A stretch of DNA of 63,235 nt, the filler included. It is 4 parts of 4 records of this genome, joined end to end, with 100 filler letters (N's around TTAATTAATTAA, not from the genome) between each part and the next. Parts side by side here need not be neighbours in the genome. Positions count along the whole stretch, not along the records: positions 48,582 to 63,235 come from SRR31156797_30357; 3 more parts are not named here. One strand, given 5' to 3'. The position numbers and the translations under genes were made by a program. This document shows, piece after piece, positions 43,052-63,235 of this stretch. A model generated the notes under the pieces. The model did not search any database and was not told where the DNA came from. It saw only the letters and a list, made by a program, of their open reading frames with translations. How positions within the stretch are numbered: position 1 is the stretch's first letter; each line of letters opens with the position of its first letter.

Positions 43052-43125
43052 GGAGAAATCATATTTTAATCCAATCAGGCCTCTTGGGCCTGATTGGAAG
43101 GAATCTTTACGCCGAGTTGACAGAT

Positions 43126-43629: not shown

Positions 43630-43695
43630 TGAATGCAACCCTTGCGGTTGAAGCTGAAAAAGCAAGATGATCATTTATTTGAGGTAGTTTGATTC

Positions 43696-49760: not shown

Positions 49761-51083
49761 TCACTTGATCAGCAAGGACGGAAGCCAGGTGATGCTCTCG
49801 GGCCAGACCACGCAGATGATGAGACCCAGCTCCATGAGCCGCCAGAAGGGAAAGGCCCCCCAATACACATCCGCGGTGCTCACTTCCGGGGGCGCCACCC
49901 CCTTGAGGTAGAAGAGCGCATACCCGAATGGGGGCGTCAGAAAGGAGTCCTGCAGCATCACGGCCATGATGACGATAAACCACACCTTGTCAAACCCCAG
50001 ATCCGCCGCAATGGGGAGAAAAAGAGGGAAGCAGATGAGAATAATACCGATCCAGTCGATAAACATGCCCAGAAAAAAGAGGATCACCATCATGATGATA
50101 AACATGCCCCATTTCCCAAAGCCGCTTTCCAAAATCAGTTCCTGCACCACGTCCCCGCCGCCGGACCCCATAAAAACACTGGAAAAACAACTGGCCGTGG
50201 CCAGGATCAGAACCACCATGCTGGTGGTGCGCGCCGTGTTGATCACAGCGGAAATTAGCCCTTTCCAGGAAAATTTCCCATAGGCCACCGTCATAATAAA
50301 AGCAAGTACGGCCCCAACCCCCGCCGCTTCCGTGGGTGTGGCCACACCCATAAAAATGGAGCCCAAAACACCCATGATCAGAATCATGGGGGGGACCAGG
50401 GATTTAGCAACCATGAAGGCAATTTCACTTTTGCTAACGGCTGCCAGCTCTTCCTTTGAGATGGCCGGGCCATCCTCTGGTTTGAAATAGCATCGGATCA
50501 GGATGTACAAAATATAGAGTGTGGAGAGGATCAGCCCTGGGACTACCGCTCCCGCAAAGAGTTTCCCCACGGACACACTCCCCTGATCCGCCATGACCAC
50601 CAGCATGATGCTGGGGGGAATCAGGATACCCAGGGTTCCACCGGCACAGATGCAGCCGGAGCTGAGCTTCTTGTTATATCCGTATTTCAGCAGCACCGGC
50701 ATGGCCAGTAAGCCCATGGTCACCACCGAAGCACCGATAATGCCGGTACAGGCCCCGAACAGGGTGGAGACCACCACCACGGCCACGGCAATGCCTCCCC
50801 GAATGGGACCGAAAAGGTACCGCATGGTACTGAACAGACTTTCCGCAACCCCCGACTGATCCAGCAACTGGGCCATGAAAATGAACAGAGGGATGGCCAC
50901 CAGGATGTAATTGTCCATCACCCCGAAAGTTTGATTGATGAACATGTAGAAACAGCTCGGCCCCCATCCCAGATAACCGAATATGACGGCCAGCCCGCCT
51001 AAAACAAACGCCAGGGGATGGCCCAGAAAAAGGCCCACCAGAAGTCCTACGAACATGCCGATTGCAATAAATTCCGCGCTCAT
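49761..51083 (-). CDS. dctM: TRAP transporter large permease
   Basis: AIPLFIFM, GILIPPS, TPTEAA, FLTPPFG. Confidence 0.92.
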   Translation of the reverse strand: MSAEFIAIGMFVGLLVGLFLGHPLAFVLGGLAVIFGYLGWGPSCFYMFINQTFGVMDNYILVAIPLFIFMAQLLDQSGVAESLFSTMRYLFGPIRGGIAVAVVVVSTLFGACTGIIGASVVTMGLLAMPVLLKYGYNKKLSSGCICAGGTLGILIPPSIMLVVMADQGSVSVGKLFAGAVVPGLILSTLYILYILIRCYFKPEDGPAISKEELAAVSKSEIAFMVAKSLVPPMILIMGVLGSIFMGVATPTEAAGVGAVLAFIMTVAYGKFSWKGLISAVINTARTTSMVVLILATASCFSSVFMGSGGGDVVQELILESGFGKWGMFIIMMVILFFLGMFIDWIGIILICFPLFLPIAADLGFDKVWFIVIMAVMLQDSFLTPPFGYALFYLKGVAPPEVSTADVYWGAFPFWRLMELGLIICVVWPESITWLPSLLIK

Positions 51084-51589
51084 AGTTCCCTCCCGGTAAT
51101 GGCCTGCGTAAAACCCTTGATGATATTTGAGAGCCCCTGAATCAGAAGCAAAGCGGCAGTGACGGGAATAACCATCTTGATTTGGGGAACGATGGGAAGT
51201 TCGGCGGAGCCGCTGGTCTCATTCATGGCCCAGGAGGTTGCCGTGTAAAGATAACCCTGCTGAAGAACAATAACACAGAAAGGGAAAAAAAATACCAGGT
51301 AGGTGAAACAGTCCAGGATGCCCCGGGTTCGGGGGGAAAATTTCTGATAGATGATATCGATGCGCACATGGGCATTGTAAAGAAGGGTATAAGCGGCCAC
51401 CAGCATGAAATAGGGGCCATAAAGGTATGCCGTAATCTCAGGCGCCCAGATGTGCGGCGTATTGAATGCTTTGATGGAGATGACCTCATACACCACCACA
51501 AGGGTCAGGGGGATGATCAGCCACATGAAAATCCGGCCCGACCATTCGCTCACATTGTCGAGGCCTTTGGTGAAAGTCGCAAGCTGCAT
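51080..51589 (-). CDS. dctQ: TRAP transporter small permease
   Basis: VVYEV...F..P..WA.E, AYTL....HVRID; four TM helices. Confidence 0.88.
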   Translation of the reverse strand: MQLATFTKGLDNVSEWSGRIFMWLIIPLTLVVVYEVISIKAFNTPHIWAPEITAYLYGPYFMLVAAYTLLYNAHVRIDIIYQKFSPRTRGILDCFTYLVFFFPFCVIVLQQGYLYTATSWAMNETSGSAELPIVPQIKMVIPVTAALLLIQGLSNIIKGFTQAITGREL

Positions 51590-51638
51590 TGGAAAACCTT
51601 TCTCGTCATGAAAAGATGCGTGGAAGCGGTCATAAAAC

Positions 51639-51675
51639 AAAAAGGCCTTTGACGTTTTGCCAAAGGCCTTTTTTT
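51639..51675. terminator. Stem-loop between dctP and dctQ (partial terminator or mRNA stabiliser)
   Basis: AAAAAGGCCTTTG..CAAAGGCCTTTTT. Confidence 0.75.
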
Positions 51676-51682
51676 GCTGGGG

Positions 51683-52798
51683 TTAGTATCCCATTTTTTT
51701 CAGTTCCGCAAGAACATTGTCCACATAGGCGGGGGTTCGACCAAAACCGAAATCACCGCTCATGGTCCGCCATTCCTTATACTGCTTGAGGTAATCCATC
51801 TGGGATTTCAGAACCTCTGCATAAGCCTTGGATTCCTTGGCTTTCATGATGCAGTATTCGCCCGCCAGTTTTTCCAATTTTTCCATATCTGCCTTGGGCA
51901 GGGGATAAATCTCCGTTCCCTTGTCCTTGAATTTCTGGATGGCCCGGGCCGAATCCCCCTCGTAGAAGGCAACGGCCCTGAGAGATGCCGCCATGCACCC
52001 GTACCGCAAAATGGCCTGGTATTCCTTGGAGAGGGAGTTCCAGGCTTTCAGGTTGACCATGGTACCCACCTGGCTTGAAGGCTGAAACCAGCAGGGGACG
52101 CTCCAGTACTTGGTAATTTCCGCAAAACCCATGGTCCAGTCCACACCGGGGCTGCTGAACTCGGCGCCGTCCAGTTTACCGGTCTGAACCGCCAGGTAGA
52201 TTTCGCCGCCCGGCATTTTGATGGGGGACGCCCCCACCTGTTTCAGGATCCAGATGGTGGCACGCGACGGGGTTCTCAGTTTCAGGCCTTTGTAATCTTC
52301 AATGCTTTTGATGGGCCCGGTTTTCTCACTGGTACGAAAGCCTGATTCCATGGGGGTGGCACCCAGGGAGAAATAGGTCATGCCGTACTTTCCCCAGAGT
52401 TTCTGCATCAATTCGAGACCCCCGAAATCATACATCCAGGTAACATAATCCATGTTGGTGAAGCCGAATGGAAAGCTCCCGATAAAGTCAAATGCGGGAT
52501 CCTTGCTGGCCCAGTAGCTCGGCCAGTCCCCAGCCATCTCCACCGCACCCTTGCCGCAGGCGTCAAAGATCTCGAAGGCTTTCATGAGGGCGCCGGAGGG
52601 AAACCACTTGATGACAAAATTGCCGCCGGTCATTTCCTTGACGTACTTGATCATCTGTTTTTCGCCGTACCACAGGTTAATGGATTCAGGCCATGTGGTG
52701 ACCATTTTCCATCTGATCTTTTTTGCGAAAGCGTTGGACCCGATTGAGAGAACCATCGTCATAATGCCCAAGATTACAAACAATTTCAGCTTTTTCAT
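51683..52798 (-). CDS. dctP: TRAP substrate-binding protein (TakP-like monocarboxylate clade)
   Basis: WKMVTTWP, PFG, GLKLR, PGGEIY.A...G.LDGAEF. Confidence 0.88.
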   Translation of the reverse strand: MKKLKLFVILGIMTMVLSIGSNAFAKKIRWKMVTTWPESINLWYGEKQMIKYVKEMTGGNFVIKWFPSGALMKAFEIFDACGKGAVEMAGDWPSYWASKDPAFDFIGSFPFGFTNMDYVTWMYDFGGLELMQKLWGKYGMTYFSLGATPMESGFRTSEKTGPIKSIEDYKGLKLRTPSRATIWILKQVGASPIKMPGGEIYLAVQTGKLDGAEFSSPGVDWTMGFAEITKYWSVPCWFQPSSQVGTMVNLKAWNSLSKEYQAILRYGCMAASLRAVAFYEGDSARAIQKFKDKGTEIYPLPKADMEKLEKLAGEYCIMKAKESKAYAEVLKSQMDYLKQYKEWRTMSGDFGFGRTPAYVDNVLAELKKMGY

Positions 52799-53063
52799 TC
52801 TAACCCTCCATAAAAAGTGAGATTAATCCATTTGAACCTCAAGAAAATTTTGGCCCGATGCGCTGATTCACCCCCTTTCTTTGGTTGGAATTCTCGACTT
52901 AATTATAACGTATTAAAGGTGTTTAATGCAGGATGATGTGCTGAATTTGACCTAATTGAGACCACCGGAAGGAAGTCCTTTCCAAATGGTGTTGAATAAA
53001 GGATAAAACGGTTTTTCCCCATACAAACGGTTTCTCGTATCAAGAGTAAGAAAAACACCCATC

Positions 53064-53936
53064 TTATGTTTTTGAGGACGGCGTTCCTTTTTTTTCCGCA
53101 TAAGTGAGCACCATCCCGCCGTCAAACAGCAGATCGCCTCCCACCAGGTATTTCCCGAACCGGGAAAATCCGAAAAGAAACAGATTGGCCACCTCGATGG
53201 GAGTCATCATCTCCTTGATGCGGCTATCCCCCATCATCACGTCCCGAACCACCTCTTCCGGGGTAATTCCCCGCTGTTTGGCCTGGGCGGGAATCTGGTT
53301 GAGGGCCAGAGCGGTCTTCACAAACCCCGTACTGACCGTAAAAGAACGGATGTTCCCATCCCCTTCAGCGGAGATGGATTGGCTCAAGGCCCGAAGGCCG
53401 AATTTCATGATGTTGTAAACGGATTTATTGAGGGTACAGATATGGCCGTGAATGGAGGCCATGTTGCCGACGCCCCCTGTGCCGTCACTGCTTTTTTGCA
53501 TATGCGGAATGGTCAATTGTGAAAGGAAAAAAGGGGCGCGCAACATAATTCGCTGCATGAGATCATATTTTTCCATGGGGAAGTTTTCCACAGCATCGAT
53601 GTGCTGGATGCCGGCGATGTTGACCAGATATTTAATGACGCCCTTCTTGGCGGCTTCTTCCACGGCGCCTGCCATATCTTCGTCGCGCGTAAGATCGGTT
53701 TTGATGAAAAACATCCGGCCGCCCGCTTCACGAATCAGTTTTTCGGTTTTTTCCCCCTCCTGTTCATTGATATCCAGACCCACAACCGAAAGGCCGTTGG
53801 CCGCGGCCGCGACAGCGGTTGCCCTGCCGATCCCCATTCCGGCTCCCGTGACAATACACACATGATTCGGGTTGAAATTGTCGTCCTCAAGCATGAGGAT
53901 CTCTTCCGACCTTATCTTTGGCTCAGCGACATCCAT
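53064..53936 (-). CDS. SDR oxidoreductase, 3-hydroxybutyrate dehydrogenase-like
   Basis: TGAGMGIG, NIAGIQH, ASIHG, KSVYNIMK (YxxxK), GFVKT.L, QI. Confidence 0.8.
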   Translation of the reverse strand: MDVAEPKIRSEEILMLEDDNFNPNHVCIVTGAGMGIGRATAVAAAANGLSVVGLDINEQEGEKTEKLIREAGGRMFFIKTDLTRDEDMAGAVEEAAKKGVIKYLVNIAGIQHIDAVENFPMEKYDLMQRIMLRAPFFLSQLTIPHMQKSSDGTGGVGNMASIHGHICTLNKSVYNIMKFGLRALSQSISAEGDGNIRSFTVSTGFVKTALALNQIPAQAKQRGITPEEVVRDVMMGDSRIKEMMTPIEVANLFLFGFSRFGKYLVGGDLLFDGGMVLTYAEKKGTPSSKT

Positions 53937-54008
53937 CCTTACCTCGCGTGGAAAGTCAAAATTTATCGGGAACCCTCTATTTTCTCCATACGGTCATAAA
54001 GACTCGGA

Positions 54009-54026
54009 AATAGGTATGACCATATT
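54009..54026. promoter_or_regulatory. FadR-family operator 1, downstream of a minus-strand TTGACA (54037-54042)
   Basis: AATAGGT-ATG-ACCATATT matches the PdhR/LldR-type TGGT-N3-ACCA. Confidence 0.65.
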
Positions 54027-54139
54027 GTATCTGAATTGTCAAGTTGTTTATGCTCAAAAAAACCTATTCGATTTACTTAAAATCATTTATGTTTCCAAAA
54101 AGGCATTTTAAACGGGATCTCTTATGTTTAGACATCAGC

Positions 54140-54150
54140 TGGTAATACCA
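54140..54150. promoter_or_regulatory. FadR-family operator 2, upstream of TTGACA-17-TAGAAG (54168-54196)
   Basis: TGGT-AAT-ACCA. Confidence 0.65.
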
Positions 54151-54280
54151 AATACCCGGTTGTATCCTTGACAAATCTGCATGAACCGGTTAGAAGAACC
54201 TCTGATGAAAAAAGGTTCATGGGACGGATCCATACGGCAGGTACGCTCCTTATCTTCTCTACAAATATTCGGAAAGAAAG

Positions 54281-54994
54281 ATGTTAAAACCGATTAAACA
54301 ATCAAAACTCTCAGACAAAATTGTAGAGCAAATCCAAAACTCAATTAAAAACAGAGAACTGCAGCCAAACGATATGCTGCCGCCGGAACGGGAAATGGCC
54401 GAGATGCTCAATGTCAGTCGGCCGCCGCTGAGGGAAGCCTTGAACAAGCTGGAGGCCATGGGCCTTATTGAAATCCAGCGCGGCCGCCGGGTTATGGTGA
54501 AATCCATTGGAGAAGCCATGCTTCCCGACATGCTCGCCAAGGCCATCACCGACGATGCTGAACTGTCTATGCAATTGCTGGAGGTCAGAAAGGTTCTGGA
54601 AACTTGGGCCGCGTCCCAGGCATGTCGCTTTGCCACGGATGAGGAGATAGCCGATCTTCAGAAAATCTGCGATGAAATGTACGATGATTTTCGAAAAACC
54701 GATTTCGGACGGAGTTCCGACGCCAAATTCCATATGGCCATATACAAAGCGACCCACAACGTCGTCTTTACCCACCTGATGTCCACCATGTTCGACCTGT
54801 TGTGGCAATCCCATGAAGTTGTCAAAAACATCATATTGAACAAGAAAGAGAATCTGAAAACCCTTTTGACGCAACATTTGGCCATCATGGAAGCGATCAA
54901 AGCGCGAGATGCGAGAACCGCGCGCAAAGAAATGCTGGCGCATCTGAAAATTGTCCAAAAGGAACTCCAGGATGCTGCGGTAAAAAACCCGTAA
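54281..54994 (+). CDS. GntR/FadR-family regulator (LldR/LutR-like)
   Basis: LPPEREMAE..NVSRPPLREAL HTH; FCD domain (EVR..LE, DAKFH, HN, QH). Confidence 0.92.
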   Translation: MLKPIKQSKLSDKIVEQIQNSIKNRELQPNDMLPPEREMAEMLNVSRPPLREALNKLEAMGLIEIQRGRRVMVKSIGEAMLPDMLAKAITDDAELSMQLLEVRKVLETWAASQACRFATDEEIADLQKICDEMYDDFRKTDFGRSSDAKFHMAIYKATHNVVFTHLMSTMFDLLWQSHEVVKNIILNKKENLKTLLTQHLAIMEAIKARDARTARKEMLAHLKIVQKELQDAAVKNP

Positions 54995-55044
54995 GCGACC
55001 TTTTTTTCGCTCGGCAATCATTTTTTGTGGAAAGGGAAAGACCA

Positions 55045-56310
55045 ATGAATACCCAAAAGGTGGAACTCCTGTACGGTGAAAACAGCAAGGACTTAGAACT
55101 GCCCTTACGGATTCCATCCCTGGAGATGAAGCCCCTTAACGCACTCCCTGCGCCTGAACAGGCCGTTGCCGCCGCCCTTGACGCCCCCATCAGCAGCAAA
55201 CCCCTTAGGGAATTGGTTCACGGCAAAAAAACCGCCTGCGTGGTTATTTCCGATTTCACCCGCCCGGTACCCAATAAAATTATTCTGCCCCCCCTGCTTC
55301 GCACTCTGGAGCAACAGGGCATGGACCCGCAAGACATCACCATCCTCATCGCCACGGGCATGCACCGACCCAACCTGGGAAAAGAGTTGGAAGATCTGGT
55401 GGGCCGAACCATCATGGCGCGGTACCCCATCCAGAACCATTATTGCCGAAAATCCGAAACCTACCGAAAGATCGATGAAATCGAAGGTGCACCCATCGAG
55501 ATCAACACCTGCTATCTGGATGCGGATCTGAAAATCCTCACCGGGCTCATCGAACCCCACTTTTATGCCGGCTACTCAGGGGGCCGTAAAGCCATACTCC
55601 CGGGCATTTCCAGCTTCGAGACCATGAAATTCATGCACTCCTTTGAAATGATCAACCATCCCCGCGTCACCAACTGCCTCCTTGAGGGGAACCCCTTTCA
55701 TGAATACGGCATTCGCGTGGCGGAACTGGCCCGGCCGGATTTCATTTTGAATTTGGTCATCAATAAAAAAAGAGAGATTGCCGGCGTGTTTGCCGGGGAT
55801 TACAACCATGCACATTTGGCAGGGTGTGAACTGGTCTCAAAACACGCCGTGGTTCCGGTGGGTCAACGGGCCGACATGGTCGTCACCTCCGGTGGCGGGT
55901 TTCCCCTGGATGCCACATTTTACCAGATCAGCAAAGCCCTTATTTGCGCCCGAAACATATTAAGACCCGGGGGAACCATTGTGGTGGCCTGCGAGTGTCG
56001 GGAAGGATTGGGAAGCCCCGAGTTCTGTCATATTATGCGATCCACTTGCGATTTCCAGGCCTTTTCAGCAGGGTACGGTGATCCAGAGGATTTTGTCATT
56101 GACCAATGGTGCGCCCAGAACATCTTTCAGGCGGCGGACCATGCGGGCAAAATCCATATTTATTCTTCCGGACTTTCCCATGGGGATGTTGAAAAAATGG
56201 GGGCGCTAAAAATCGAAAATCTGCAACAGACCGTTGATGATTTATTACACACCCATCCCGAAACAGTGGTGGTCCCCGAGGGACCCTATGTGGTGGGAAG
56301 GATCGGTTGA
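55045..56310 (+). CDS. larA: Nickel-pincer-dependent lactate / 2-hydroxyacid racemase
   Basis: ISDFTRPVP, IATGMHR, EPHFYAGYSGGRK, GNP, GG.PLD..FYQ..K, C.EG.G, DQW. Confidence 0.88.
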   Translation: MNTQKVELLYGENSKDLELPLRIPSLEMKPLNALPAPEQAVAAALDAPISSKPLRELVHGKKTACVVISDFTRPVPNKIILPPLLRTLEQQGMDPQDITILIATGMHRPNLGKELEDLVGRTIMARYPIQNHYCRKSETYRKIDEIEGAPIEINTCYLDADLKILTGLIEPHFYAGYSGGRKAILPGISSFETMKFMHSFEMINHPRVTNCLLEGNPFHEYGIRVAELARPDFILNLVINKKREIAGVFAGDYNHAHLAGCELVSKHAVVPVGQRADMVVTSGGGFPLDATFYQISKALICARNILRPGGTIVVACECREGLGSPEFCHIMRSTCDFQAFSAGYGDPEDFVIDQWCAQNIFQAADHAGKIHIYSSGLSHGDVEKMGALKIENLQQTVDDLLHTHPETVVVPEGPYVVGRIG

Positions 56311-56341
56311 ACAAAGGATAAAAGGATTCCATTAACCGCAT

Positions 56342-58171
56342 ATGCCACTTTCCCATTTTCTCATAAAAAGAGCCGCCTGCCTCCTTCCGGCCCTGCTGAT
56401 TTTCATTTTTTCCGGCCCGGACGCACAAGCCTCCTGGCTTCTGGATCCAGCCAAATTTCACGCATCGGCCCACGGCCAGACGGCCTGTTCGGACTGTCAC
56501 GGGAATGTGGCGGATCAACAACTTCACCCGAAACCCGGGAATGTGAGCAAACATGAAAAGGCATTTTTTAAATCGGACCAATGCCTGGACTGCCATGACC
56601 AGGTCATGGAGGATCTGGATAACGGGGTTCACGGCTCACATAAGGTCGAGAATGCAAATGAATATCAGTACTGCCTGAAATGCCACAATCCCCACACGCA
56701 ACCCAGCCTGGGGGATAACCGAACCGGAAAATATAACCCCGACAGGCCACCCCGGGAACAGTGCGGCGCCTGCCACAAACAGGCATGGGCCCTCCCCCCC
56801 TTTTCAGATGAAGACGCCGCCTGCATGACTTGTCACCAGGCGCGAAACAATAAGGACCCCGATAATATCAAACATACCAAAGCCCTCTGCCTGCACTGCC
56901 ATGGAAACAACGGCACCGAAGCACAAATTAAAACCGGTAGACACACCCCATTGTTGGACGGCAAGACCTATGATGCCACTCCCCATGCACATATGGCCTG
57001 CACCGATTGCCACAAAAACGCCGCCGCATTCGGCCACAACCGGCAACCTGCCGTGGACTGCCGGAAGTGCCATGTGCCCCATGAAGAAAAGGTGATCCAT
57101 GACGCCCACATGGGGGTCACCTGCCAGGCTTGCCACCTTCAGGGAATTACGCCTTTCCGGGATACTGAAACGGCTGCCCTTCGATGGAAACCCAACAAAG
57201 ACCTCAAAGATCTTTCCACCCTTCATCAGATGAATATTTCCAACGGCAAGGACTCGTGCAAACGTTGCCATTTTGCGGGAAATGATCTTGGGGCCGCCTC
57301 CATGGTCCTGCCGGCCAAAAGCATATTGTGCATGCCCTGCCACACGGCCACATTTTCCCTGGACGACACCATATCCATCATGGGTTTCGTGATTTTCCTC
57401 TGCGGCATGGTCCTCTTTGTTTCGGTCCTTTTAACCGGCACCATGAACCATATTACCAGCACGCACCCCATACTTAAGCTCATACAAGCCGTGTTGGACA
57501 TGCTTCGCCCCATTTTTTCACCCAAAATCTTCAAGATCCTGCGATCCCTTTTCTGGGATGCGTTTCTGCAACGGCGCCTGTACCGCCGTTCTCCCGGGCG
57601 GTGGTTCATCCACGGGCTTATTTTCTACCCCTTCGCGATCCGATTTTTCTGGGGTCTTGCGGCATTACTGGGATCGATTTGGGCACCCCACAATTCCGCC
57701 ATTTGGCATATGATCAACAAAAACCATCCCCTGACCGCTTTTCTCTTTGATCTCACCGGAATCATGATTCTCGCAGGCGTTATCCTGGCCTGGATACGGG
57801 GCGCCCTTCAAGAACGGAATCGTGCAACGGGAACACCGCCTCAGGACCGGATCGCACTGGCCCTCATCGGCGGGATCGTAATCATCGGTTTTCTGCTGGA
57901 AGGGATGCGGATCGTCATGACCGGATATCCCGCCAACGCCGCCTGGAGCTTTTTAGGGTATGCCGTCAGCCTGTGGTTCTCACCGTCACGGGGGATCCCT
58001 GAAGTGTTCAGTTTCATGTGGTATATCCATGCGGCACTCACCGGTGCATTTATCGCCTATATCCCCTTCAGCCGGCTGCTGCACATGATTCTGGCGCCGG
58101 TGGTAATCTCCATGAATGCGGTATCGCCTGCCCATGGCGCCCATGATGAAAATCGCGAAAAAAAGACATGA
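56342..58171 (+). CDS. 11-heme cytochrome c fused to a NarI/HdrE/DsrM-type membrane cytochrome b domain
   Basis: Signal peptide; 11 CxxCH; TM region with WFIH, GFLLEG.RI, WYIH, YIPFSRLLH. Confidence 0.85.
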   Translation: MPLSHFLIKRAACLLPALLIFIFSGPDAQASWLLDPAKFHASAHGQTACSDCHGNVADQQLHPKPGNVSKHEKAFFKSDQCLDCHDQVMEDLDNGVHGSHKVENANEYQYCLKCHNPHTQPSLGDNRTGKYNPDRPPREQCGACHKQAWALPPFSDEDAACMTCHQARNNKDPDNIKHTKALCLHCHGNNGTEAQIKTGRHTPLLDGKTYDATPHAHMACTDCHKNAAAFGHNRQPAVDCRKCHVPHEEKVIHDAHMGVTCQACHLQGITPFRDTETAALRWKPNKDLKDLSTLHQMNISNGKDSCKRCHFAGNDLGAASMVLPAKSILCMPCHTATFSLDDTISIMGFVIFLCGMVLFVSVLLTGTMNHITSTHPILKLIQAVLDMLRPIFSPKIFKILRSLFWDAFLQRRLYRRSPGRWFIHGLIFYPFAIRFFWGLAALLGSIWAPHNSAIWHMINKNHPLTAFLFDLTGIMILAGVILAWIRGALQERNRATGTPPQDRIALALIGGIVIIGFLLEGMRIVMTGYPANAAWSFLGYAVSLWFSPSRGIPEVFSFMWYIHAALTGAFIAYIPFSRLLHMILAPVVISMNAVSPAHGAHDENREKKT

Positions 58172-58181
58172 AAGGGAGATA

Positions 58182-59570
58182 ATGACAACCATGGATGAAA
58201 AACTGGAAAAGGCCATTGTTGATATTGTGGGAAAAGATAACTTCACCAGGAAACTCATTGATCTCGTGTCATATGCCTGCGATGCATCGGAGCACAATTA
58301 TCGACCGCTATGCGCCGTGTTCCCGGAGACCCCGGAACAGATCTCCCACATCATGAAACTGGCCAATGGGGATAAAATTCCCGTCACGCCCCGTGGCGCC
58401 GGAACGGGGCTCTCCGGCATGGCGGTCCCCGTCAGGGGCGGCATTGTCCTGGATCTCTCCCGGATGAACCGGATTTTAAAAATCAGCATCGAGGACCGCC
58501 TGGCGGTGGTACAACCGGGAGTGATCTATGCAGACCTTGAAAAGGCCCTCGCCCTCAAAGGGTTTTTCTTCCCACCCGATCCCGCCAGCGGCAAGGTGAG
58601 CACCCTGGGCGGGAACGTTGCCACCAATGCGGGAGGGCTCAAAGGAGCCAAATACGGGACCACCCGGGACTATGTGCTGGGCCTTCAGGTGGTACTGCCG
58701 GACGGAAGGATCATGAGAACCGGTTCAAAGGCCATGAAAAGCGTTTCGGGCTATGATCTGACCCGGCTTTTCGTGGGAAGCGAGGGAACCCTGGGCATTG
58801 TCACTGAAATCATTTTCAAGATCAATCCCAGACCCACGGCCACCAGTACGGCGCTTGCCACCTTTGACAACCTGGAGGATACGGGAAATGCCATCAACCA
58901 GATCATGCACAGCGGCATCATTCCCAGCGCCCTGGAAATTCTGGGGCGGGAAACCCTTTTGGCCATCAACCAGAACACGGATCTCAATCTGCCCGAGGTG
59001 GAGGCCATGCTCCTGGTGGAGGCCGACGGCTACACGAAAGAAGAAACCGAGTACCAGATCGAAAAGGTCATCGGAATCTTTGAGGCCAATCACCCCCGGG
59101 AAGTAAAACAAGCCAAAACCGAAGCGGAGGTGAAAGACCTCTGGGCGGCCCGGAAATCCGCCTACCCGGTCCTTTCCCGGATCAGGCCCAACTCCGTGCT
59201 GGAAGACGTGACCGTCCCCATGACCCACATTGCCGAACTCTTGAAAGGCGTTCAAGATATTTCCAGGAAACACGACATCCCGATCGCCACATTCGGTCAT
59301 GCGGGCGACGGAAACCTTCACCCCCAGATTCTCTATGACGGATATGATCCCGTTCAGGTGGAAAAAAAGGAAAAGGCCATCAGGGATCTCTTTGAGCTGG
59401 CCATTGGTCTGGACGGGACCCTTACGGGCGAACACGGCATCGGTCTTTCCAAAGCACCTTTCATGACCCTGGAACATGATCCGGTGGCCATGGAGATGAT
59501 GCGCACCCTGAAAAAAACCTTTGATCCCAACAACATCCTGAATCCCGGAAAAATGGCGCTGGAGGGTTGA
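58182..59570 (+). CDS. glcD: FAD-linked 2-hydroxyacid dehydrogenase subunit (GlcD / D-LDH-like)
   Basis: PRGAGTG, FPPDPAS, TLGGN.ATNAGG, GSEGTLG, FGHAGDGNLH, GEHGIG, NPGK. Confidence 0.85.
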   Translation: MTTMDEKLEKAIVDIVGKDNFTRKLIDLVSYACDASEHNYRPLCAVFPETPEQISHIMKLANGDKIPVTPRGAGTGLSGMAVPVRGGIVLDLSRMNRILKISIEDRLAVVQPGVIYADLEKALALKGFFFPPDPASGKVSTLGGNVATNAGGLKGAKYGTTRDYVLGLQVVLPDGRIMRTGSKAMKSVSGYDLTRLFVGSEGTLGIVTEIIFKINPRPTATSTALATFDNLEDTGNAINQIMHSGIIPSALEILGRETLLAINQNTDLNLPEVEAMLLVEADGYTKEETEYQIEKVIGIFEANHPREVKQAKTEAEVKDLWAARKSAYPVLSRIRPNSVLEDVTVPMTHIAELLKGVQDISRKHDIPIATFGHAGDGNLHPQILYDGYDPVQVEKKEKAIRDLFELAIGLDGTLTGEHGIGLSKAPFMTLEHDPVAMEMMRTLKKTFDPNNILNPGKMALEG

Positions 59571-60676
59571 AAATGGACACCCAATACGAGTTTGAAAAAA
59601 AATTCCGCGAACAAATCCTGCAATGCTCCCGATGCGGGTTCTGCCAGGCGGTTTGCCCGGTCTATGGGGCCACCCTCAGGCCGGGGTTGAATGCCCGCGG
59701 CAAAATGCTCCTTTTAAAAGAAGTCATGGACGGCCATATTGAGCTGAACGATCAATTGACCGAAAGCCTGTTCCAGTGCACCACCTGCGCCGGCTGTTTT
59801 GAAAACTGCCCCAGCGGTGTCCGGGTTCCCGACATCATCAAGCAGGCCAGAAAAGATATGGTGAACGTGGGCTCATGCCACCCCGCCTTTGAAGGGATGC
59901 ACAAGGTCCTTCAAAAACAGACCAACATCTATGGGGAAGAGGAGCCCGAGGATTTCGAAAGGGAGCGGAACCAAAAAGCGGCCCATGTGTATTTCATCGG
60001 GTGTGTGGGATCCTACCGGGAGGATGAAGCCACCCTGGAAACCCTGGCGCTCCTGGATAAACTCAAGGTGGATTTCACCCTGATTGATGAAGTGTGCTGC
60101 AGCGGCGTGCTGGAGGACGTGGGGTATGACCTAAACCCGGATCTTGCCCGAAAAAACATGGACCTTATTGATGATACGGGGGCCAAAACGGTCATCACCG
60201 GCTGCCCCTACTGTTTTCGAACCTTCAACAACAAGCCCCAGTATGCCGAGCTGAAGGATAAGGGGATCAAAGTAGTTCATATTACCCAGTTTTTGCAGGA
60301 TTTCGAGTTCCCCGTCCGAACAGACCTTCGGGTGACCTACCACGACCCCTGCGACCTGGGACGACACTGCGGTATTTATGAGGAACCGCGAAACACCATC
60401 GGGAAGATTGCGCCCAACTTTATGGAAATGCCGGATAATCGTGAAGGGGCCCTCTGCTGCGGTGCCGGGGGCGGCGTCAGAGGCGCCTTTGCCAAGAACT
60501 CCATTGCCATGGCGCGCCGCAGGCTTGGGCAAGCGGAAGAAGTGGGCGCTGAAATCGTTTTGACCGAATGCAACTCCTGCGTGCATAACCTGAGTAATGC
60601 CAAACTGCGAAAGCAGAAATTCAAGATTTACAACACAACCCAGTTCATTAACCAGTTGCTGGAAGGAACAGAATAA
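59567..60676 (+). CDS. Fe-S protein with 2x[4Fe-4S] and two CCG domains (GlcF-like)
   Basis: CSRCGFC..CP, CTTCAGC..CP, IGC..VCCS..CPYC, YHDPC..CCG..CNSC; 4-nt overlap with glcD. Confidence 0.88.
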   Translation: MKMDTQYEFEKKFREQILQCSRCGFCQAVCPVYGATLRPGLNARGKMLLLKEVMDGHIELNDQLTESLFQCTTCAGCFENCPSGVRVPDIIKQARKDMVNVGSCHPAFEGMHKVLQKQTNIYGEEEPEDFERERNQKAAHVYFIGCVGSYREDEATLETLALLDKLKVDFTLIDEVCCSGVLEDVGYDLNPDLARKNMDLIDDTGAKTVITGCPYCFRTFNNKPQYAELKDKGIKVVHITQFLQDFEFPVRTDLRVTYHDPCDLGRHCGIYEEPRNTIGKIAPNFMEMPDNREGALCCGAGGGVRGAFAKNSIAMARRRLGQAEEVGAEIVLTECNSCVHNLSNAKLRKQKFKIYNTTQFINQLLEGTE

Positions 60677-60701
60677 AAAAGTCAGATTGGGAGGATAAAC
60701 A

Positions 60702-61124
60702 ATGAAAATTGAACAATACAACATGCCGGACGACCTTTATTATGAAGAGAACCACTTCTGGGTGAAAGAGGAAGGGGATCTTCTGGTCATGGGGATGGAT
60801 GATTTTGCCCAGACCATGGCCGGGGAAGTGGTTTATGTTCAGCTTCCGGACGACGGCAAAAAGCTGAAACTGGGGAAGAAATTCGCCAAGATCGAATCGG
60901 GGAAATGGCTGGGGAAAGTCTATGCACCCGTGAACGGCGTGCTCCACAGTGTCAACGAAGAGTTGGAAACCAACCCCGGACTCATCAACGACGACTGCTA
61001 CGGCAAGGGATGGCTCTACAAGATCAAGCCCAGCGACAAGAGCGAGCTGGAAAACCTGATCAAGGGAGAAGAGGCGGTTACCCAATGGGTACTGGCTGAT
61101 ATTGAAAAATATGCCGAAGAATAG
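60702..61124 (+). CDS. gcvH: Lipoyl-carrier protein, GcvH-like with an LbpA-type ESGKW motif
   Basis: GGAGG RBS; LYY..NHFWV, GMDDFAQ..AG, IESGKW (lipoyl-Lys), YAPV.G, N..L..NP..IN.D.YG.GW. Confidence 0.85.
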   Translation: MKIEQYNMPDDLYYEENHFWVKEEGDLLVMGMDDFAQTMAGEVVYVQLPDDGKKLKLGKKFAKIESGKWLGKVYAPVNGVLHSVNEELETNPGLINDDCYGKGWLYKIKPSDKSELENLIKGEEAVTQWVLADIEKYAEE

Positions 61125-61182
61125 ACTCGGGACGGAAAGCAGAGGTGACTTGGATGTTGACCTTTAACCCATCATTTTGAAT

Positions 61183-62385
61183 ATGGCTGAGAACCGGGAA
61201 TACAACGTCAGGCAACTCCTGGAGATGGGGGCCTGTACCAATTGCCAGGCATGCATTGATGTGTGCCCGGCGGTTTGTGCGGCATCCGACGGTGAACTGT
61301 CCGCCGTCTACCGCATGAAGGGCCTTCAAAAGATCCTGAAACAGCGCACCGGGCTCTTCAGGAGACTGTTCAGGAAAAAGCCCCCCACCCAGGAGGATCT
61401 GAAACACTTCAGCGATACGGTATTTCGCTGCACCCTGTGCGGGAACTGCCAGGAAATCTGTCCCGTGGGCATCCATCTGAAAGATTTGTGGCTTTCCCTG
61501 CGCCAGGACATGGTCCATTCCAAAAGCTACCCCAAGAAAATCAATATGATCCGGGATAACCTGGCGGAAGACCACAATGTGTTTGCCGAAGATAATGAAG
61601 AACGGGCCGAATGGGTGGAGGATATGCGGGATGCGCCCGATGACGGCTACATGAAGGATCAATCGGAAGTCGTCTATTTTACGGGCTGCACGGCCGCCTA
61701 TTTTCCCCTGGTTCAGAAAATCCCCATGGCCCTGGCGGAAATTTTTGACCGCAGCCGGGTGGATTTCACCCTTTTGGGGGAAGAGGAGTGGTGCTGCGGC
61801 TTTCCCATGCTGGGGGCCGGCCTGGGGGAGATGTTTCAGGAGTTCATGGAACATAACCTGGAAGCGGTTCGAGAAAAGAGCGCCAAAGAAATCGTCTTCT
61901 CCTGCCCGTCCTGCTACCACATGTGGCGGGAGCACTACCCCCGGGAATTCAGGATTTCCCATGCCACCGGATTTTTGCTGAACCTGCTCAAAAAGGGCCG
62001 GATACCCCTTCGGGAACTCCCCTTAACCGTCACCTACCACGACCCCTGCGATCTGGGACGCGGTTCCCGCGTATTTGACGAACCGAGAGAAATTATTCGG
62101 TCCATCCCGGGAGTTCAATTCGTGGAACTTCCCAATACACGGGAAAACTGCCGGTGCTGCGGCGGCGGCGGCAACCTGGAAATGGTGGATGCCAAACTCT
62201 CGGCGGAGATTTCAAAACGCAAAATCCGGGAAGTCCTGGATACGGGCGCCCAGGCCGTTGTCACCTCCTGCCAACAGTGCGTCCGCACCATGACCACCCA
62301 TGTGCGTCGAAACAAGGTGGACTTGCAGGTGCTGGATATTACCCAGCTGGTGCGGAAGGCCCTGAAACCGGAAAATTCAAAATAA
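61183..62385 (+). CDS. HdrD-like Fe-S protein (2x[4Fe-4S] and two CCG domains)
   Basis: CTNCQAC..CP, CTLCGNC..CP, FTGC..WCCG..CPSC, YHDPC..CCGGGG..CQQC. Confidence 0.88.
   Translation: MAENREYNVRQLLEMGACTNCQACIDVCPAVCAASDGELSAVYRMKGLQKILKQRTGLFRRLFRKKPPTQEDLKHFSDTVFRCTLCGNCQEICPVGIHLKDLWLSLRQDMVHSKSYPKKINMIRDNLAEDHNVFAEDNEERAEWVEDMRDAPDDGYMKDQSEVVYFTGCTAAYFPLVQKIPMALAEIFDRSRVDFTLLGEEEWCCGFPMLGAGLGEMFQEFMEHNLEAVREKSAKEIVFSCPSCYHMWREHYPREFRISHATGFLLNLLKKGRIPLRELPLTVTYHDPCDLGRGSRVFDEPREIIRSIPGVQFVELPNTRENCRCCGGGGNLEMVDAKLSAEISKRKIREVLDTGAQAVVTSCQQCVRTMTTHVRRNKVDLQVLDITQLVRKALKPENSK
62245..62295 (+). repeat. Direct repeat copy 1, inside the hdrD-like gene
   Basis: 50 of 51 nt identical to 63185-63235. 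Confidence 0.9.
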
Positions 62386-62491
62386 GCAGAAGCCAAAAAA
62401 CATGAAAACCGCCGTTTTTTGCCACCGGATTCATTTTTAATTAAGGACAATGAATGTGGTTTCGAGTGATTGCGGCAACTCGCAACATAAG

Positions 62492-62899
62492 TCAAGTTCT
62501 CGGGCTATGAAGTTTGATGGGCCAAACATCGCTAAAATTATAAAAATCTTTATCCGTAGTAAAAATTGGCATGTGGCGTCTCGTTGATATTGCACAAATA
62601 AGAAAATCCGTATTTGATCCCTGAATCCCTTTTTTTCTTGCCGTGTTAAAATATTCCGCCGCCAACTCGTAATCTTCTCGTTCCAATACAAGATCATCAA
62701 AGGCTGCGAGGTGACTTCTTAGCAGATTAAATTGATTTTTTGATTTAATTCCACTGAGGAGTTCCTGTCGTACCGGGCCTATGAGCTGAACACGCACCTC
62801 TTTTATTAATTCCCTTAATTCCTCTATGTATTCATTGTGTTGTGGCTCTTTTCGTCTCAATGCCAGAGACCAAACACAAGTGTCGATGATGATTTTCAT
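62492..62899 (-). CDS. vapC: PIN-domain toxin (VapC)
   Basis: IIDTCVW, QELL.G, TDFLI, FTTDKDF; ATGA overlap with the antitoxin. Confidence 0.9.
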   Translation of the reverse strand: MKIIIDTCVWSLALRRKEPQHNEYIEELRELIKEVRVQLIGPVRQELLSGIKSKNQFNLLRSHLAAFDDLVLEREDYELAAEYFNTARKKGIQGSNTDFLICAISTRRHMPIFTTDKDFYNFSDVWPIKLHSPRT

Positions 62900-63096
62900 T
62901 CCACAGCTCTTTGTTTCTTGTGGTCATAATCTTCATAATACTCTATTTTGTTGAAAACATTTAGTATTTCAGCCTGTTTTCTCCGTTGAATGTATTCTTC
63001 CAAGGCTTCGGTAACAACTCCCTTTTTGGTGCGATGTTTTCCGATTGCTTTTGCTTCTTCAACCAGCCGGTCGTCGATTGCGAGATTGGTGGCCAT
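62896..63096 (-). CDS. vapB: VapB-family (DUF2191-like) antitoxin
   Basis: MATNLAIDD.L..EA...G...TK...V..AL.EY; AGGAGG RBS. Confidence 0.88.
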   Translation of the reverse strand: MATNLAIDDRLVEEAKAIGKHRTKKGVVTEALEEYIQRRKQAEILNVFNKIEYYEDYDHKKQRAVE

Positions 63097-63113
63097 TATG
63101 CACCTCCTGTATT

Positions 63114-63152
63114 TTTACACATAATAATAGTGTTTTTAATGTGTAAAGTAAA
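63114..63152 (-). promoter_or_regulatory. vapBC promoter with autoregulatory palindrome
   Basis: TTTACACAT-N16-ATGTGTAAA overlapping minus-strand TTTACT-17-TATTAT. Confidence 0.65.
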
Positions 63153-63184
63153 CTGGAAATCCTTAATGAAAATCTCAAAGCACC

Positions 63185-63235
63185 GGCGCCCAGGCCGTTG
63201 TCACCTCCTGCCAGCAGTGCGTCCGCACCATGACC
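63185..63235 (+). repeat. Direct repeat copy 2 (orphan hdrD-like fragment, runs off the window end)
   Basis: Encodes GAQAVVTSCQQCVRTMT; differs from copy 1 by a synonymous CAA>CAG. Confidence 0.9.

Follow-up and report, generated by a model that had tools for sequence, protein, structure and literature searches.

A widely conserved operon that may route 2-hydroxyacid oxidation through a dedicated GcvH-type lipoyl protein to a multiheme membrane cytochrome

The window (the whole stretch of DNA analyzed, 63,235 nucleotides) carries a widely conserved, apparently undescribed operon of a sulfate-reducer-type bacterium, the layout of which suggests a protein-bound dithiol that would shuttle electrons to the membrane. 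We propose, with confidence poised midway between belief and doubt, that oxidation of a 2-hydroxyacid (lactate) may proceed via a dedicated lipoylated GcvH paralog acting as dithiol/disulfide electron carrier. Judged from sequence, this carrier role is well supported by context; the electron-transfer steps, the direction of flow, the acceptor and the lactate-to-lipoyl step are those that we infer. A literature search returned no published description of the operon, in agreement with the statement in an earlier note on this DNA that no characterized system of this composition is known. The genes concerned and their upstream neighbors are as follows.

49761–51083, minus strand: TRAP transporter DctM (tblastn, 45% identity to DctM of one of the loci compared)
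51080–51640, minus strand: TRAP transporter DctQ (Pfam DctQ, 2.6e-22)
51683–52798, minus strand: TRAP transporter DctP (Pfam DctP, 2.5e-48)
53064–53936, minus strand: short-chain dehydrogenase (SDR), 3-hydroxybutyrate-dehydrogenase-like (Pfam adh_short_C2, 1.9e-33), listed for context only
54281–54994, plus strand: GntR/FCD regulator, closest to LldR (Pfam GntR, 5.1e-20; FCD, 4.9e-26)
55027–56310, plus strand: LarA-family nickel-pincer 2-hydroxyacid racemase (Pfam Lar_N, 1e-57; LarA_C, 1e-15)
56342–58171, plus strand: 11-heme cytochrome c/NarI-DsrM-type fusion (Pfam Cytochrome_C7, 1.5e-15; Nitrate_red_gam, 2.1e-7; NCBIfam DsrM, 6.5e-5)
58116–59570 (ORF), plus strand: GlcD-family FAD-linked 2-hydroxyacid dehydrogenase (FAD_binding_4, 4.7e-46; FAD-oxidase_C, 7.2e-68)
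59567–60676, plus strand: CCG1, HdrD-like (Pfam CCG, 3e-28, two stretches; Fer4_8, 8.8e-12)
60702–61124, plus strand: GcvH-type lipoyl carrier protein, special subfamily (GCV_H, 1.4e-40)
61177–62385, plus strand: CCG2, HdrD-like (Pfam CCG, 1.2e-32, two stretches; plus a 4Fe-4S dicluster)

As can be seen, regulator, LarA, cytochrome, GlcD, CCG1, GcvH and CCG2 all run in one direction from 54281 to 62385, and the six genes from LarA to CCG2 form the tightly packed co-directional run that had been noticed earlier. Judging from the translated ORF, GlcD probably starts at the ATG at 58182 or 58191, shortly past the cytochrome stop at 58171. The further claim that gcvP/T/L and 2-oxoacid dehydrogenase genes are missing from the contig is borne out by tblastn and Pfam, searches not aimed specifically at Lpd, the L-protein. 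Queried with every ORF of an E1 α/β region and of four canonical gcvH-gcvP regions of relatives, the window gave hits to the GcvH gene and the TRAP genes alone, and the families in question are absent among the 25 listed of 60 Pfam families in the other 41 window ORFs.

In the scheme that we propose, the substrate would be taken up, probably through the neighboring TRAP system, and its L and D forms interconverted by LarA, after which GlcD would oxidize the D-2-hydroxyacid (probably D-lactate) at its FAD and pass electrons on through the Fe-S clusters of CCG1. The lipoyl disulfide of GcvH would then be reduced at the Hdr-type CCG clusters of CCG1 and the dihydrolipoyl arm re-oxidized at those of CCG2, which, presumably as the membrane cytochrome's partner in the cytoplasm, would dock at the cytoplasmic face of the NarI-type heme b domain. 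From heme b, electrons would reach menaquinone and/or the fused periplasmic 11-heme domain. The conserved core of cytochrome, GcvH and CCG2 would in this way constitute an HdrDE- or Tmc-like dihydrolipoyl-protein:quinone/cytochrome c oxidoreductase, with GlcD-CCG1 as one exchangeable donor module.

Conservation was assessed in 80 species-level loci selected on the basis of their GcvH similarity (72–99%), with assessable loci as denominators. CCG2 lies directly 3′ of GcvH in 66/67 loci and CCG1 is present in 63/72, so that the lipoyl protein gene does travel with both CCG genes, the point on which the earlier proposal had been staked. The cytochrome is found in 44/47 loci and GlcD in 46/57, and the full order cytochrome-GlcD-CCG1-GcvH is kept in 35 of the 47 loci having at least 5 kb upstream. 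Chance is a very poor explanation for an arrangement that dozens of species-level genomes share.

Operon GcvH exceeds the NCBIfam PRK01202 cut-off (139.3 against 117 bits) and carries the subfamily motif ESGKWLGK with lipoyl-lysine K68 (codon 60903–60905), which is invariant in 62/62 aligned sequences, in keeping with the earlier reading of a lipoyl carrier; Cys99 is near-invariant in the same alignment. Four of five relatives' genomes hold a separate gcvH beside gcvP, the product of which is 34–40% identical to operon GcvH, and in the 2.5-Mb genome G002 operon GcvH is the sole GcvH and GcvP is absent. On this evidence operon GcvH is a dedicated paralog, distinct from the glycine-cleavage H protein. 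With a median identity to the window protein of 80%, ahead of CCG1 (76%), GlcD (75%), CCG2 (73%) and the cytochrome (48%), it is the best-conserved member, which fits a protein with several partners. An LplA+LplB-type ligase follows CCG2 in 25/57 assessable loci, with LipS1 downstream in 9/46 and LipS2 in 7/46, a set that corresponds to the pathway described in PMC10332631 for LbpA of the sHdr system. The window itself holds no lipoate-protein ligase or LipS genes, and we infer that GcvH is lipoylated in this organism. Complex prediction lends weak support to a pairing of CCG2 with GcvH, with a score of 0.40 against 0.00 for the best control, at least 84% contact agreement between runs and a partner pLDDT of at least 87; of 80 solved complexes 58 reached the mark used, as did 2 of 110 mismatched pairs, and 7 of the 80 and both mismatches did so with scores of 0.60 or less.

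CCG1 and CCG2 are related to each other (27% identity, E 2e-50, BLASTP). CCG1 combines a 4Fe-4S dicluster (two ferredoxin-type motifs) with two complete five-Cys CCG motifs, its cysteines being either invariant across 55 sequences or conserved in no fewer than 90% of them, at a mean column identity of 81%, and the 18 cluster cysteines of CCG2 show no variation across 60 sequences. All Hdr-type cluster cysteines are kept in both, and the Hdr-like nature assigned to them earlier stands. The nearest solved relative of both is EtfD (E 9.6e-54 with the CCG2 family profile, 4.9e-23 with CCG1), described in PMC13083937 as a non-catalytic protein with Thr539 in place of the second Cys of a CC pair and with the other cluster capped by His583. 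By contrast, CCG2 has Cys206-Cys207 and Ser245 at the positions of this Cys-Thr pair and His583, and CCG1 has an intact CC pair and Tyr215 at the capping His, so that both retain the Hdr-type "open cluster" residues lost in EtfD. CCG domains also act as plain electron wires, as in EtfD. Complete CC motifs are known as well in CCG proteins without known thiol chemistry, and the Hdr-type sites are therefore consistent with, rather than diagnostic of, the carrier role.

The cytochrome comprises a signal peptide, a periplasmic heme c domain (residues ∼27–335) and a five-helix NarI/DsrM-type cytochrome b domain (∼340–595). We count exactly 11 CXXCH motifs (residues 49–334) followed by five hydrophobic segments, which together with the Nitrate_red_gam match confirms the 11-heme c/NarI-type protein reported earlier; full-length homologs have 11 motifs in 35/39 cases and 10 in the remaining four. 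His424, His563 and His581 are the only invariant His of the membrane domain across 40 aligned cytochromes, and with just three of these a NarI-like two-heme arrangement is not assured. Paired with CCG2, the protein has the layout of HdrDE/Tmc. Using this cytochrome as query, no homolog was found in genome G002; since 3/47 loci lack it too, the membrane link is not obligatory.

GlcD with a CCG subunit is a known, self-sufficient enzyme type (GlcDEF; Dld-II of Desulfovibrio) that needs no carrier, and a reading that we consider unlikely but take seriously has GlcD-CCG1 as an ordinary GlcDF/Dld-II-type D-lactate dehydrogenase delivering electrons directly to CCG2/cytochrome or another acceptor, while cytochrome-GcvH-CCG2 acts as a respiratory stand-in for dihydrolipoamide dehydrogenase and separately re-oxidizes dihydrolipoyl-GcvH from other enzymes (e.g., 2-oxoacid E1-type decarboxylases). 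The core occurs without GlcD-CCG1 in 7/47 loci, and GlcD-CCG1 without the cytochrome in 2/47. L002 and NaphS2 (L008) have an intact core, only LarA fragments and no GlcD-CCG1. In L040, 2-oxoacid dehydrogenase E1 α and β lie directly 5′ of cytochrome-GcvH-CCG2-ligase-LipS1-LipS2, and because E1 enzymes reduce lipoyl groups, the core there would be the oxidizing side, in the direction that our scheme proposes; in L006 it adjoins 2-oxoacid:ferredoxin-oxidoreductase-like subunits. Module loci such as L010, L045 and L070 hold extra GlcD+CCG pairs without GcvH. With standard potentials near −190 mV for lactate/pyruvate and near −290 mV for lipoamide, lactate-to-lipoyl transfer is uphill by some 100 mV and would depend on a high ratio of lactate to pyruvate or on an exergonic downstream pull, whereas dihydrolipoyl to quinone is downhill. 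Against this separation, GlcD-CCG1 is placed precisely between gcvH and the gene for the cytochrome in those 35/47 loci, CCG1 keeps its full, highly conserved Hdr-type motifs, and G002 has GlcD-CCG1-GcvH-CCG2-ligase in one block without GcvP; in the 20-kb stretch around it no E1 or 2-oxoacid:ferredoxin-oxidoreductase family matched in five scanned neighboring ORFs (3 upstream and 7 downstream ORFs fell outside the scan). What the E1-linked and GlcD-free loci do change is the earlier view of 2-hydroxyacid oxidation as the basis of the system: GlcD and CCG1 are usually present, but with a core that also exists without them, the lactate branch would be one of several inputs and not the defining part.

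Electrons might also run the other way, from a periplasmic reductant (H2 or formate) via the cytochrome c pool to the 11-heme domain, heme b, CCG2 and lipoyl-GcvH and on to cytoplasmic reductions, including GlcD-CCG1 as 2-oxoacid reductase. Tmc and Hmc of sulfate reducers, which share the three-layer layout, are reportedly thought to carry periplasmic electrons inward, dihydrolipoyl to pyruvate is downhill, and a true DsrK in 4/5 relatives marks these as sulfite-reducer types. The LldR-like regulator, racemase and nearby uptake transporter point instead to substrate consumption, the E1-linked variants put electrons into the lipoyl group, and such organisms would have no known need for lactate synthesis, which together make reverse flow improbable. 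Still more doubtful is a GcvH without redox shuttling, serving as a lipoyl-relay/assembly hub from which other proteins receive lipoyl groups or as a sulfane sulfur carrier with the CCG proteins acting on the sulfur adduct. Sulfane sulfur carriage is debated for LbpA, Cys99 would provide an additional thiol, and the relatives' downstream ligase, LipS1 and LipS2 genes suit a relay, which PMC10332631 presents as established, through GcvH, in Bacillus. However, the near-obligate pairing with CCG2 and cytochrome has no role in a relay, amidotransferase, DsrE, TusA and rhodanese families have no match, on a non-systematic check, among those ORFs that we annotated in the window or loci, and HdrA is absent. 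Least probable, in our estimation, is that CCG1 and CCG2 do no more than conduct electrons in the manner of EtfD/GlcF, as their kinship to the electron-transfer protein EtfD might suggest, with gcvH a passenger outside the electron path; a passenger would not have remained 72–99% identical and next to CCG2 in nearly every species-level locus, and the non-catalytic substitutions specific to EtfD are missing from both proteins.

LarA (372.6 bits against an NCBIfam Ni_dep_LarA cut-off of 460), GlcD (498 bits against 567.9 for TIGR00387 glcD) and the regulator (NCBIfam LldR, 7.4e-45, 153 bits against 311) all score below cut-off; the top solved relative of LarA is 9eid_A, "a broad-substrate spectrum lactate racemase A" (E 7.6e-92). 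The TRAP transporter (49761–52798) and the SDR lie upstream of the run and divergent from it. The transporter is likely an uptake system for an organic-acid substrate, its membership of the module being uncertain, and TRAP genes flank the module in 10/80 loci. The SDR has a cluster of homologous ORFs in five close loci, for which NCBIfam PHB_DH gives a match at 1.9e-56.

The operon comprises seven closely spaced genes on the + strand (window 54281–62385), listed here in order; the ORF list and domain searches confirmed every item of the gene run read in the earlier note, the count of 11 haem sites included.

First gene, + strand: GntR/FCD regulator, most similar to LldR (153 bits, cut-off 311)
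Second gene, + strand: putative racemase of the LarA family, Lar_N and LarA_C domains both found
Third gene, + strand: cytochrome of 609 residues, 11 CXXCH motifs (residues 49–334) and a five-helix C-terminal domain
Fourth gene, + strand: GlcD-family flavoprotein (TIGR00387 glcD, 498 against a cut-off of 567.9)
Fifth gene, + strand: CCG1, HdrD-like (two Pfam CCG domains and Fer4_8)
Sixth gene, + strand: GcvH, 140 residues (Pfam GCV_H, 1.4e-40)
Seventh gene, + strand: CCG2, HdrD-like (two Pfam CCG domains and Fer4_8)

LarA scores 372.6 with NCBIfam Ni_dep_LarA (cut-off 460), and its best relative in the PDB is a broad-substrate LarA (E 7.6e-92). Intergenic gaps between the listed ORFs measure 25–52 nt (LarA–cytochrome 31, CCG1–GcvH 25, GcvH–CCG2 52), the GlcD and CCG1 ORFs share 4 nt, and the listed GlcD ORF also runs over the end of the cytochrome gene, an internal ATG at 58182 or 58191 being more likely the true GlcD start than the listed one. 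Divergently upstream lie an SDR gene, a TRAP transporter and an acyl-CoA-ligase-like gene. Counts of promoter-like and terminator-like sites across 52800–63235 gave no signal over shuffled sequence (6 against 9.0 ± 3.3 and 12 against 15.3 ± 4.2, respectively).

GcvH returned 1941 matches at E ≤ 0.001 from a large protein collection, many of them around 80% identical and belonging to Desulfobacteraceae or Desulfobacterales bins. Scanning one genome per species then yielded 250 confirmed relatives, and the loci of the best 80 of these 250 (72–99% identical; L001–L080), which include strain NaphS2 (L008, strain-named rather than a metagenome bin) and several complete metagenome-bin chromosomes, were mapped with the window's seven proteins, only loci with enough flanking DNA being counted. 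Because the loci were picked by GcvH similarity, the counts apply to this GcvH subfamily only. The neighbourhood check suggested in the earlier note came out in favor of its proposal: gcvH is kept with the CCG genes, CCG2 lying directly downstream in 66 of 67 assessable loci (the sole exception, L064, has an opposite-strand ORF next after GcvH) and CCG1 being present in 63 of 72. The cytochrome is encoded at 44 of 47 assessable loci, GlcD at 46 of 57 and LarA, fragments included, at 18 of 41. The order cytochrome–GlcD–CCG1–GcvH is complete in 35 of the 47 loci for which 5 kb or more of upstream sequence was available; among these same 47, seven have the cytochrome directly before GcvH, two have cytochrome–CCG1–GcvH, two have GlcD–CCG1 without the cytochrome and one has CCG1 only. 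GcvH shows the highest median identity to the window of the whole set (80%), that of the cytochrome being 48%.

Judged by family, the window GcvH could be a glycine-cleavage H protein, and it does pass the NCBI GcvH models (PRK01202, 139.3 against 117; TIGR00527, 117.3 against 115.85). We rejected this role on the following grounds: a second gcvH stands directly beside gcvP in four of five relatives' genomes (G001, which is NaphS2, G003, G004 and G005), these canonical copies being only 34–40% identical to the window GcvH; in G002 (2.5 Mb) the GcvH of the present subfamily is the sole GCV_H match and a GcvP match is absent; and tblastn of the relatives' gcv-region ORFs against the window detected neither a P-protein homolog nor, GcvH itself apart, one of any other gcv-operon gene. 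The subfamily carries the motif ESGKWLGK against ESVKAVSE in the canonical copies of the same genomes. Its lysine K68 does not vary in any of the 62 aligned sequences and stands opposite the ESVKA-motif lysine of the canonical copies, which we take to be the lipoyl attachment residue. Cys99 (window 60996–60998, within CYGKGW) reaches at least 90% conservation in the same 62-sequence alignment, where the canonical H protein shown has a proline. From these features the window GcvH is predicted to be a dedicated lipoyl carrier. Genome G003 also holds, at L082 (7452–9559, minus strand), tandem ORFs of 308 and 361 residues that each end in a C-terminal GCV_H domain, with N-terminal regions lacking a Pfam match.

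When the ORFs on either side of the module in the relatives' loci were clustered, lipoylation genes emerged. A lipoate-protein ligase gene directly follows CCG2 in 25 of 57 assessable loci, its product combining LplA catalytic and LplB-like C-terminal domains (TIGR00545, 1e-40; LplB, 64 bits against a cut-off of 65), and is then followed by LipS1-like radical-SAM genes in nine of 46 loci (228.6 bits against a cut-off of 230) and by LipS2-like genes in seven of 46 (213 against 270). In the window and its closest relatives none of the three stands next to the module; LplA-family ligases occur elsewhere in all five relatives' genomes, and LipS1-like genes are found also in G001 and G005, the two closest of the five. 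As shown by Tanabe et al. (PMC10332631), a ligase/LipS1/LipS2 route serves LbpA of the sHdr system, and the ligase–LipS1–LipS2 genes after CCG2 in the relatives would represent the same route; the main text of that paper does not contain the string 'desulf'. A class V aminotransferase, closest to aspartate–glyoxylate and pyridoxamine–pyruvate types, is encoded in L010 (10865–12073) and six other loci; in L041 it lies 5′ of the cytochrome gene, and in the remaining six 3′ of ligase or LipS1 genes. These neighbors hint at glyoxylate or glycolate as a possible substrate in certain lineages.

At 27% identity, CCG1 and CCG2 are paralogs that align colinearly, and their eight ferredoxin-type cysteines and both five-cysteine CCG motifs either do not vary or are conserved at 90% or more (60 CCG2 and 55 CCG1 homologs). 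Among solved structures, M. smegmatis EtfD (9ojn_A; E 9.6e-54 when searched with the CCG2 profile) is the closest to both. This protein of the Rv0338c family of ETF:menaquinone oxidoreductases likewise links an HdrD-like module to a NarI-like haem-b membrane domain but is a single fused polypeptide fed by ETF, whereas CCG1 and CCG2 are of soluble type. According to PMC13083937, the CCG clusters of EtfD are non-catalytic and closed: Thr539 takes the place of the second cysteine of a CC pair (CT for CC) to give a linear 3Fe-4S cluster, and His583 completes, as a cap, the coordination of the other CCG cluster. HMMER alignments place CC206–207 and Ser245 of CCG2, and CC177–178 and Tyr215 of CCG1, at these positions, and because the EtfD-type substitutions are absent both window proteins retain the open pattern of heterodisulfide reductases. 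This pattern is consistent with thiol/disulfide chemistry and is not proof of it, full CCG motifs occurring also in subunits not known to handle thiols. Co-prediction of the H protein with the CCG proteins, which had been proposed as a further check, was weakly favorable for the CCG2 pair. The CCG2–GcvH complex prediction scored above its controls, at 0.40 against 0.00 for the best of them, in a range (0.60 or below) where the mark was reached by only seven of 80 solved complexes and by both of the two mismatched pairs, out of 110, that reached it at all, 58 of the 80 solved complexes doing so overall. Separate runs share at least 84% of contacts, with a partner pLDDT of at least 87, and structure prediction thereby lends weak support to a CCG2–GcvH complex.

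The cytochrome has a signal-peptide-like N-terminus and, after the haem-c domain, five hydrophobic segments that match Pfam Nitrate_red_gam (2.1e-7; 31 bits, cut-off 22.9) and, with weak scores, the NCBIfam models DsrM and QmoC. Eleven CXXCH motifs are found in 35 of 39 full-length homologs and 10 in the other four, although median identity is just 48%. Cytochromes b of the five-helix NarI type use four histidine ligands for two haems b; here, His424, His563 and His581 are the only invariant histidines in 40 sequences. The haem-c domain is inferred to lie outside and the conserved positive loops (R411, R412, R420 and R486) inside, so that His424 and His581 would be near the cytoplasmic face, where they plausibly form a bis-His haem; His563 lies near the outer face, and no conserved partner for it was found in the 40 sequences. 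In an even sample of 401 genomes of the NaphS2 phylum, 40 match the cytochrome at E ≤ 1e-30, 16 of them near full length. Many genomes of the phylum (G251, G221, G332 and others) have shorter matches that start around residue 150, 210 or 300 of the query and are relatives that join fewer haems to the same membrane domain. The cytochrome is missing at three of the 47 assessable loci, and G002 has no match to the window cytochrome as query. A conserved ORF of about 106 residues without a Pfam match is found just 5′ of the cytochrome gene in L029 (5739–6062) and L034 (4342–4659); its cluster has six members, those of L002 and L008 lying further upstream on the opposite strand.

Several families of Hdr-related complexes invite comparison. 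Like HdrDE of Methanosarcina, the module combines a protein of HdrD layout (CCG2, with two ferredoxin-type 4Fe-4S and two five-cysteine CCG motifs) with a probable NarI-type membrane cytochrome b encoded alongside it, in the presumed role of HdrE, and dithiol/disulfide exchange is proposed to take place at the CCG clusters. Unlike in HdrDE, a protein-bound lipoyl group is proposed as substrate in place of CoM-S-S-CoB, the haem-b domain continues a periplasmic cytochrome c of 11 haems in one polypeptide and has just the three invariant histidines, and the hosts are sulfate-reducer-type bacteria; with the HdrB and HdrC models the CCG proteins stay far lower (CoB_CoM_SS_B, 44 and 29 bits against 345; CoB_CoM_SS_C, 40 and 24 against 160). 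With Tmc, Hmc and DsrMK(JOP) the module shares three layers: multihaem cytochrome c in the periplasm, cytochrome b in the membrane and an HdrD-like CCG protein in the cytoplasm. It also shares a small redox-dithiol protein as proposed substrate, and GcvH would take the part that DsrC plays there. The components are nonetheless non-orthologous (the cytochrome scores 22 against 300 bits with DsrM), the cytochromes c and b are one protein here, and the carrier is lipoyl-GcvH. Candidate assignments of CCG2 as TmcB, DsrK or HmcF were rejected because its NCBIfam scores lie far under the cut-offs (82 against 735, 101 against 400 and 58 against 750 bits, respectively); true DsrK (more than 700 bits) is encoded elsewhere in four of the five relatives' genomes.

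The sHdr–LbpA systems of Hyphomicrobium and Thioalkalivibrio resemble the module in the genetic tie of a GcvH-like lipoyl protein to Hdr-like CCG proteins and, going by PMC10332631, in the linkage to an LplAB-type ligase and LipS1/LipS2, here seen in some relatives with genes that fall short of the LplB, LipS1 and LipS2 model cut-offs. They differ in that the module has fused HdrD-type proteins and a membrane cytochrome in place of an HdrB1B2C1C2 set, with no HdrA-type match among the seven operon proteins in Pfam and NCBIfam searches, and in that its hosts are anaerobic and the donor is an organic-acid dehydrogenase rather than sulfur. The window carrier, moreover, still passes the NCBI GcvH models, and is set beside LbpA by description and not by sequence, LbpA not being among the solved structures matched at E ≤ 1e-5. 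The module would work like HdrDE or like Tmc/DsrMK with DsrC, yet by the curated models it is a member of neither, nor of sHdr–LbpA.

The cytochrome, GcvH and CCG2 genes form a core that is also found with other neighbors. In L040 (3431–14713), E1 alpha (E1_dh, 5e-91) and E1 beta genes lie immediately 5′ of cytochrome–GcvH–CCG2 and ligase–LipS1–LipS2 genes lie 3′; in L006 (1723–8420), alpha and beta genes resembling 2-oxoacid:ferredoxin oxidoreductase and an NAD(P)H-type Fe-S flavoprotein gene precede the core; and further neighbors are radical-SAM and ferredoxin-like genes (L076) and the class V aminotransferase of L041. Since 2-oxoacid dehydrogenase E1 enzymes reduce lipoyl groups, the core would have to be the oxidizing side in the E1-linked variants, and electron flow out of the lipoyl group into the core is accordingly the likeliest direction. 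In L002 and NaphS2, whose GcvH proteins are 97% and 94% identical to that of the window, GlcD–CCG1 is absent but the core is intact, and the core therefore outlasts the lactate branch; with LarA remnants upstream of the cytochrome (L002 5780–6082, residues 318–418; L008 5870–6076, residues 86–124 and 390–427), that branch appears to have been lost secondarily in both. In G003, a third GcvH paralog (L081, 5390–9031; 66% identical) sits between E1 alpha/beta and an LplAB-type ligase gene, with a TRAP permease upstream and E2 and cytochrome genes absent nearby, and may serve an E1 as its free-standing lipoyl acceptor.

In the mechanism that we propose for the window operon, LarA would equilibrate the L and D forms of a 2-hydroxyacid, GlcD would oxidize the D form, and the electrons would pass through CCG1 to reduce the lipoyl disulfide of GcvH; lipoyl-GcvH would then be re-oxidized by CCG2, bound where the haem-b domain faces the cytoplasm, the electrons leaving to menaquinone or to the 11 periplasmic haems. 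Its least secure step is the transfer from lactate to the lipoyl group, which by standard potentials is some 100 mV uphill and could be feasible with a high lactate:pyruvate ratio and a strongly oxidized carrier. The rival reading takes GlcD–CCG1 to be an ordinary lactate dehydrogenase beside an independent dihydrolipoyl-oxidizing core. A GlcD-family flavoprotein gene adjoining a CCG iron-sulfur subunit gene is the arrangement known from GlcDEF glycolate oxidase and from the Desulfovibrio D-lactate dehydrogenase Dld-II (GlcD with an HdrD-like protein). Unlike those enzymes, the operon has no GlcE, the GlcF model scores only 75 bits against a cut-off of 333, and a lipoyl protein, a second CCG protein and a membrane cytochrome share the operon. 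We regard the module as a real and conserved variant of Hdr-type membrane redox complexes that is apparently undescribed, and in which lipoyl-GcvH is likely to act as a carrier.

A broader reading, which we put forward tentatively and at somewhat worse than even chances, is that lipoyl-GcvH serves as a general cytoplasmic two-electron carrier of anaerobic sulfate-reducer-type bacteria, taking electrons from exchangeable donors (GlcD–CCG1 for 2-hydroxyacids, elsewhere E1 alpha/beta or a 2-oxoacid oxidoreductase-like enzyme) and delivering them through an HdrDE/Tmc-like complex to menaquinone or periplasmic haems. Sulfate reducers and syntrophs encode a very large number of HdrD-like CCG proteins (in each of four relatives' genomes the DsrK model finds 12 to 27 matches), and for most of them we know of no disulfide substrate. 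Were the general-carrier reading true, lipoyl-GcvH would supply a class of orphan HdrD-like proteins outside methanogens with their long-missing physiological disulfide, and would be a respiratory replacement for dihydrolipoamide dehydrogenase. Should lipoyl-GcvH be the substrate here, electrons would travel from cytoplasmic dehydrogenases to membrane and periplasm on a carrier of a new kind. The wiring of lactate-type substrates to multihaem cytochromes would then be accounted for, with a bearing on hydrogen/formate cycling or interspecies electron transfer, and the role of lipoate would widen past 2-oxoacid and glycine cleavage and sHdr sulfur oxidation. The full-text literature, supplements aside, yielded no description of a GcvH linked to both a membrane cytochrome and HdrD-like proteins; judged by title and abstract, papers combining lipoate-binding protein, heterodisulfide reductase and sulfate-reducing concern sulfur oxidizers or unrelated matters, and the terms 'HdrD' and 'lactate' are absent from two papers on lipoylation.

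Several further genes of the window deserve mention. At 45552–48384, a biotin carboxylase and a PYC_OADA/HMGL-like carboxyltransferase make up a two-subunit pyruvate-carboxylase-like pair, which adjoins a second TRAP system (42017–44997) and a family III CoA-transferase (40694–41923) and lies, in window coordinates, a few kb from the operon. One of the 41 other window ORFs matches Pfam Cytochrom_C552 (NrfA-type, 9.4e-166). Directly after the operon, on the minus strand, stands a VapC-family PIN toxin gene (62492–62899; NCBIfam 84 bits, cut-off 80), a position that in close relatives is taken by hopanoid genes, namely one for an HpnG-like phosphorylase and a 692-residue ORF that, by reading of the sequence rather than by domain scan, is a squalene-hopene cyclase candidate.
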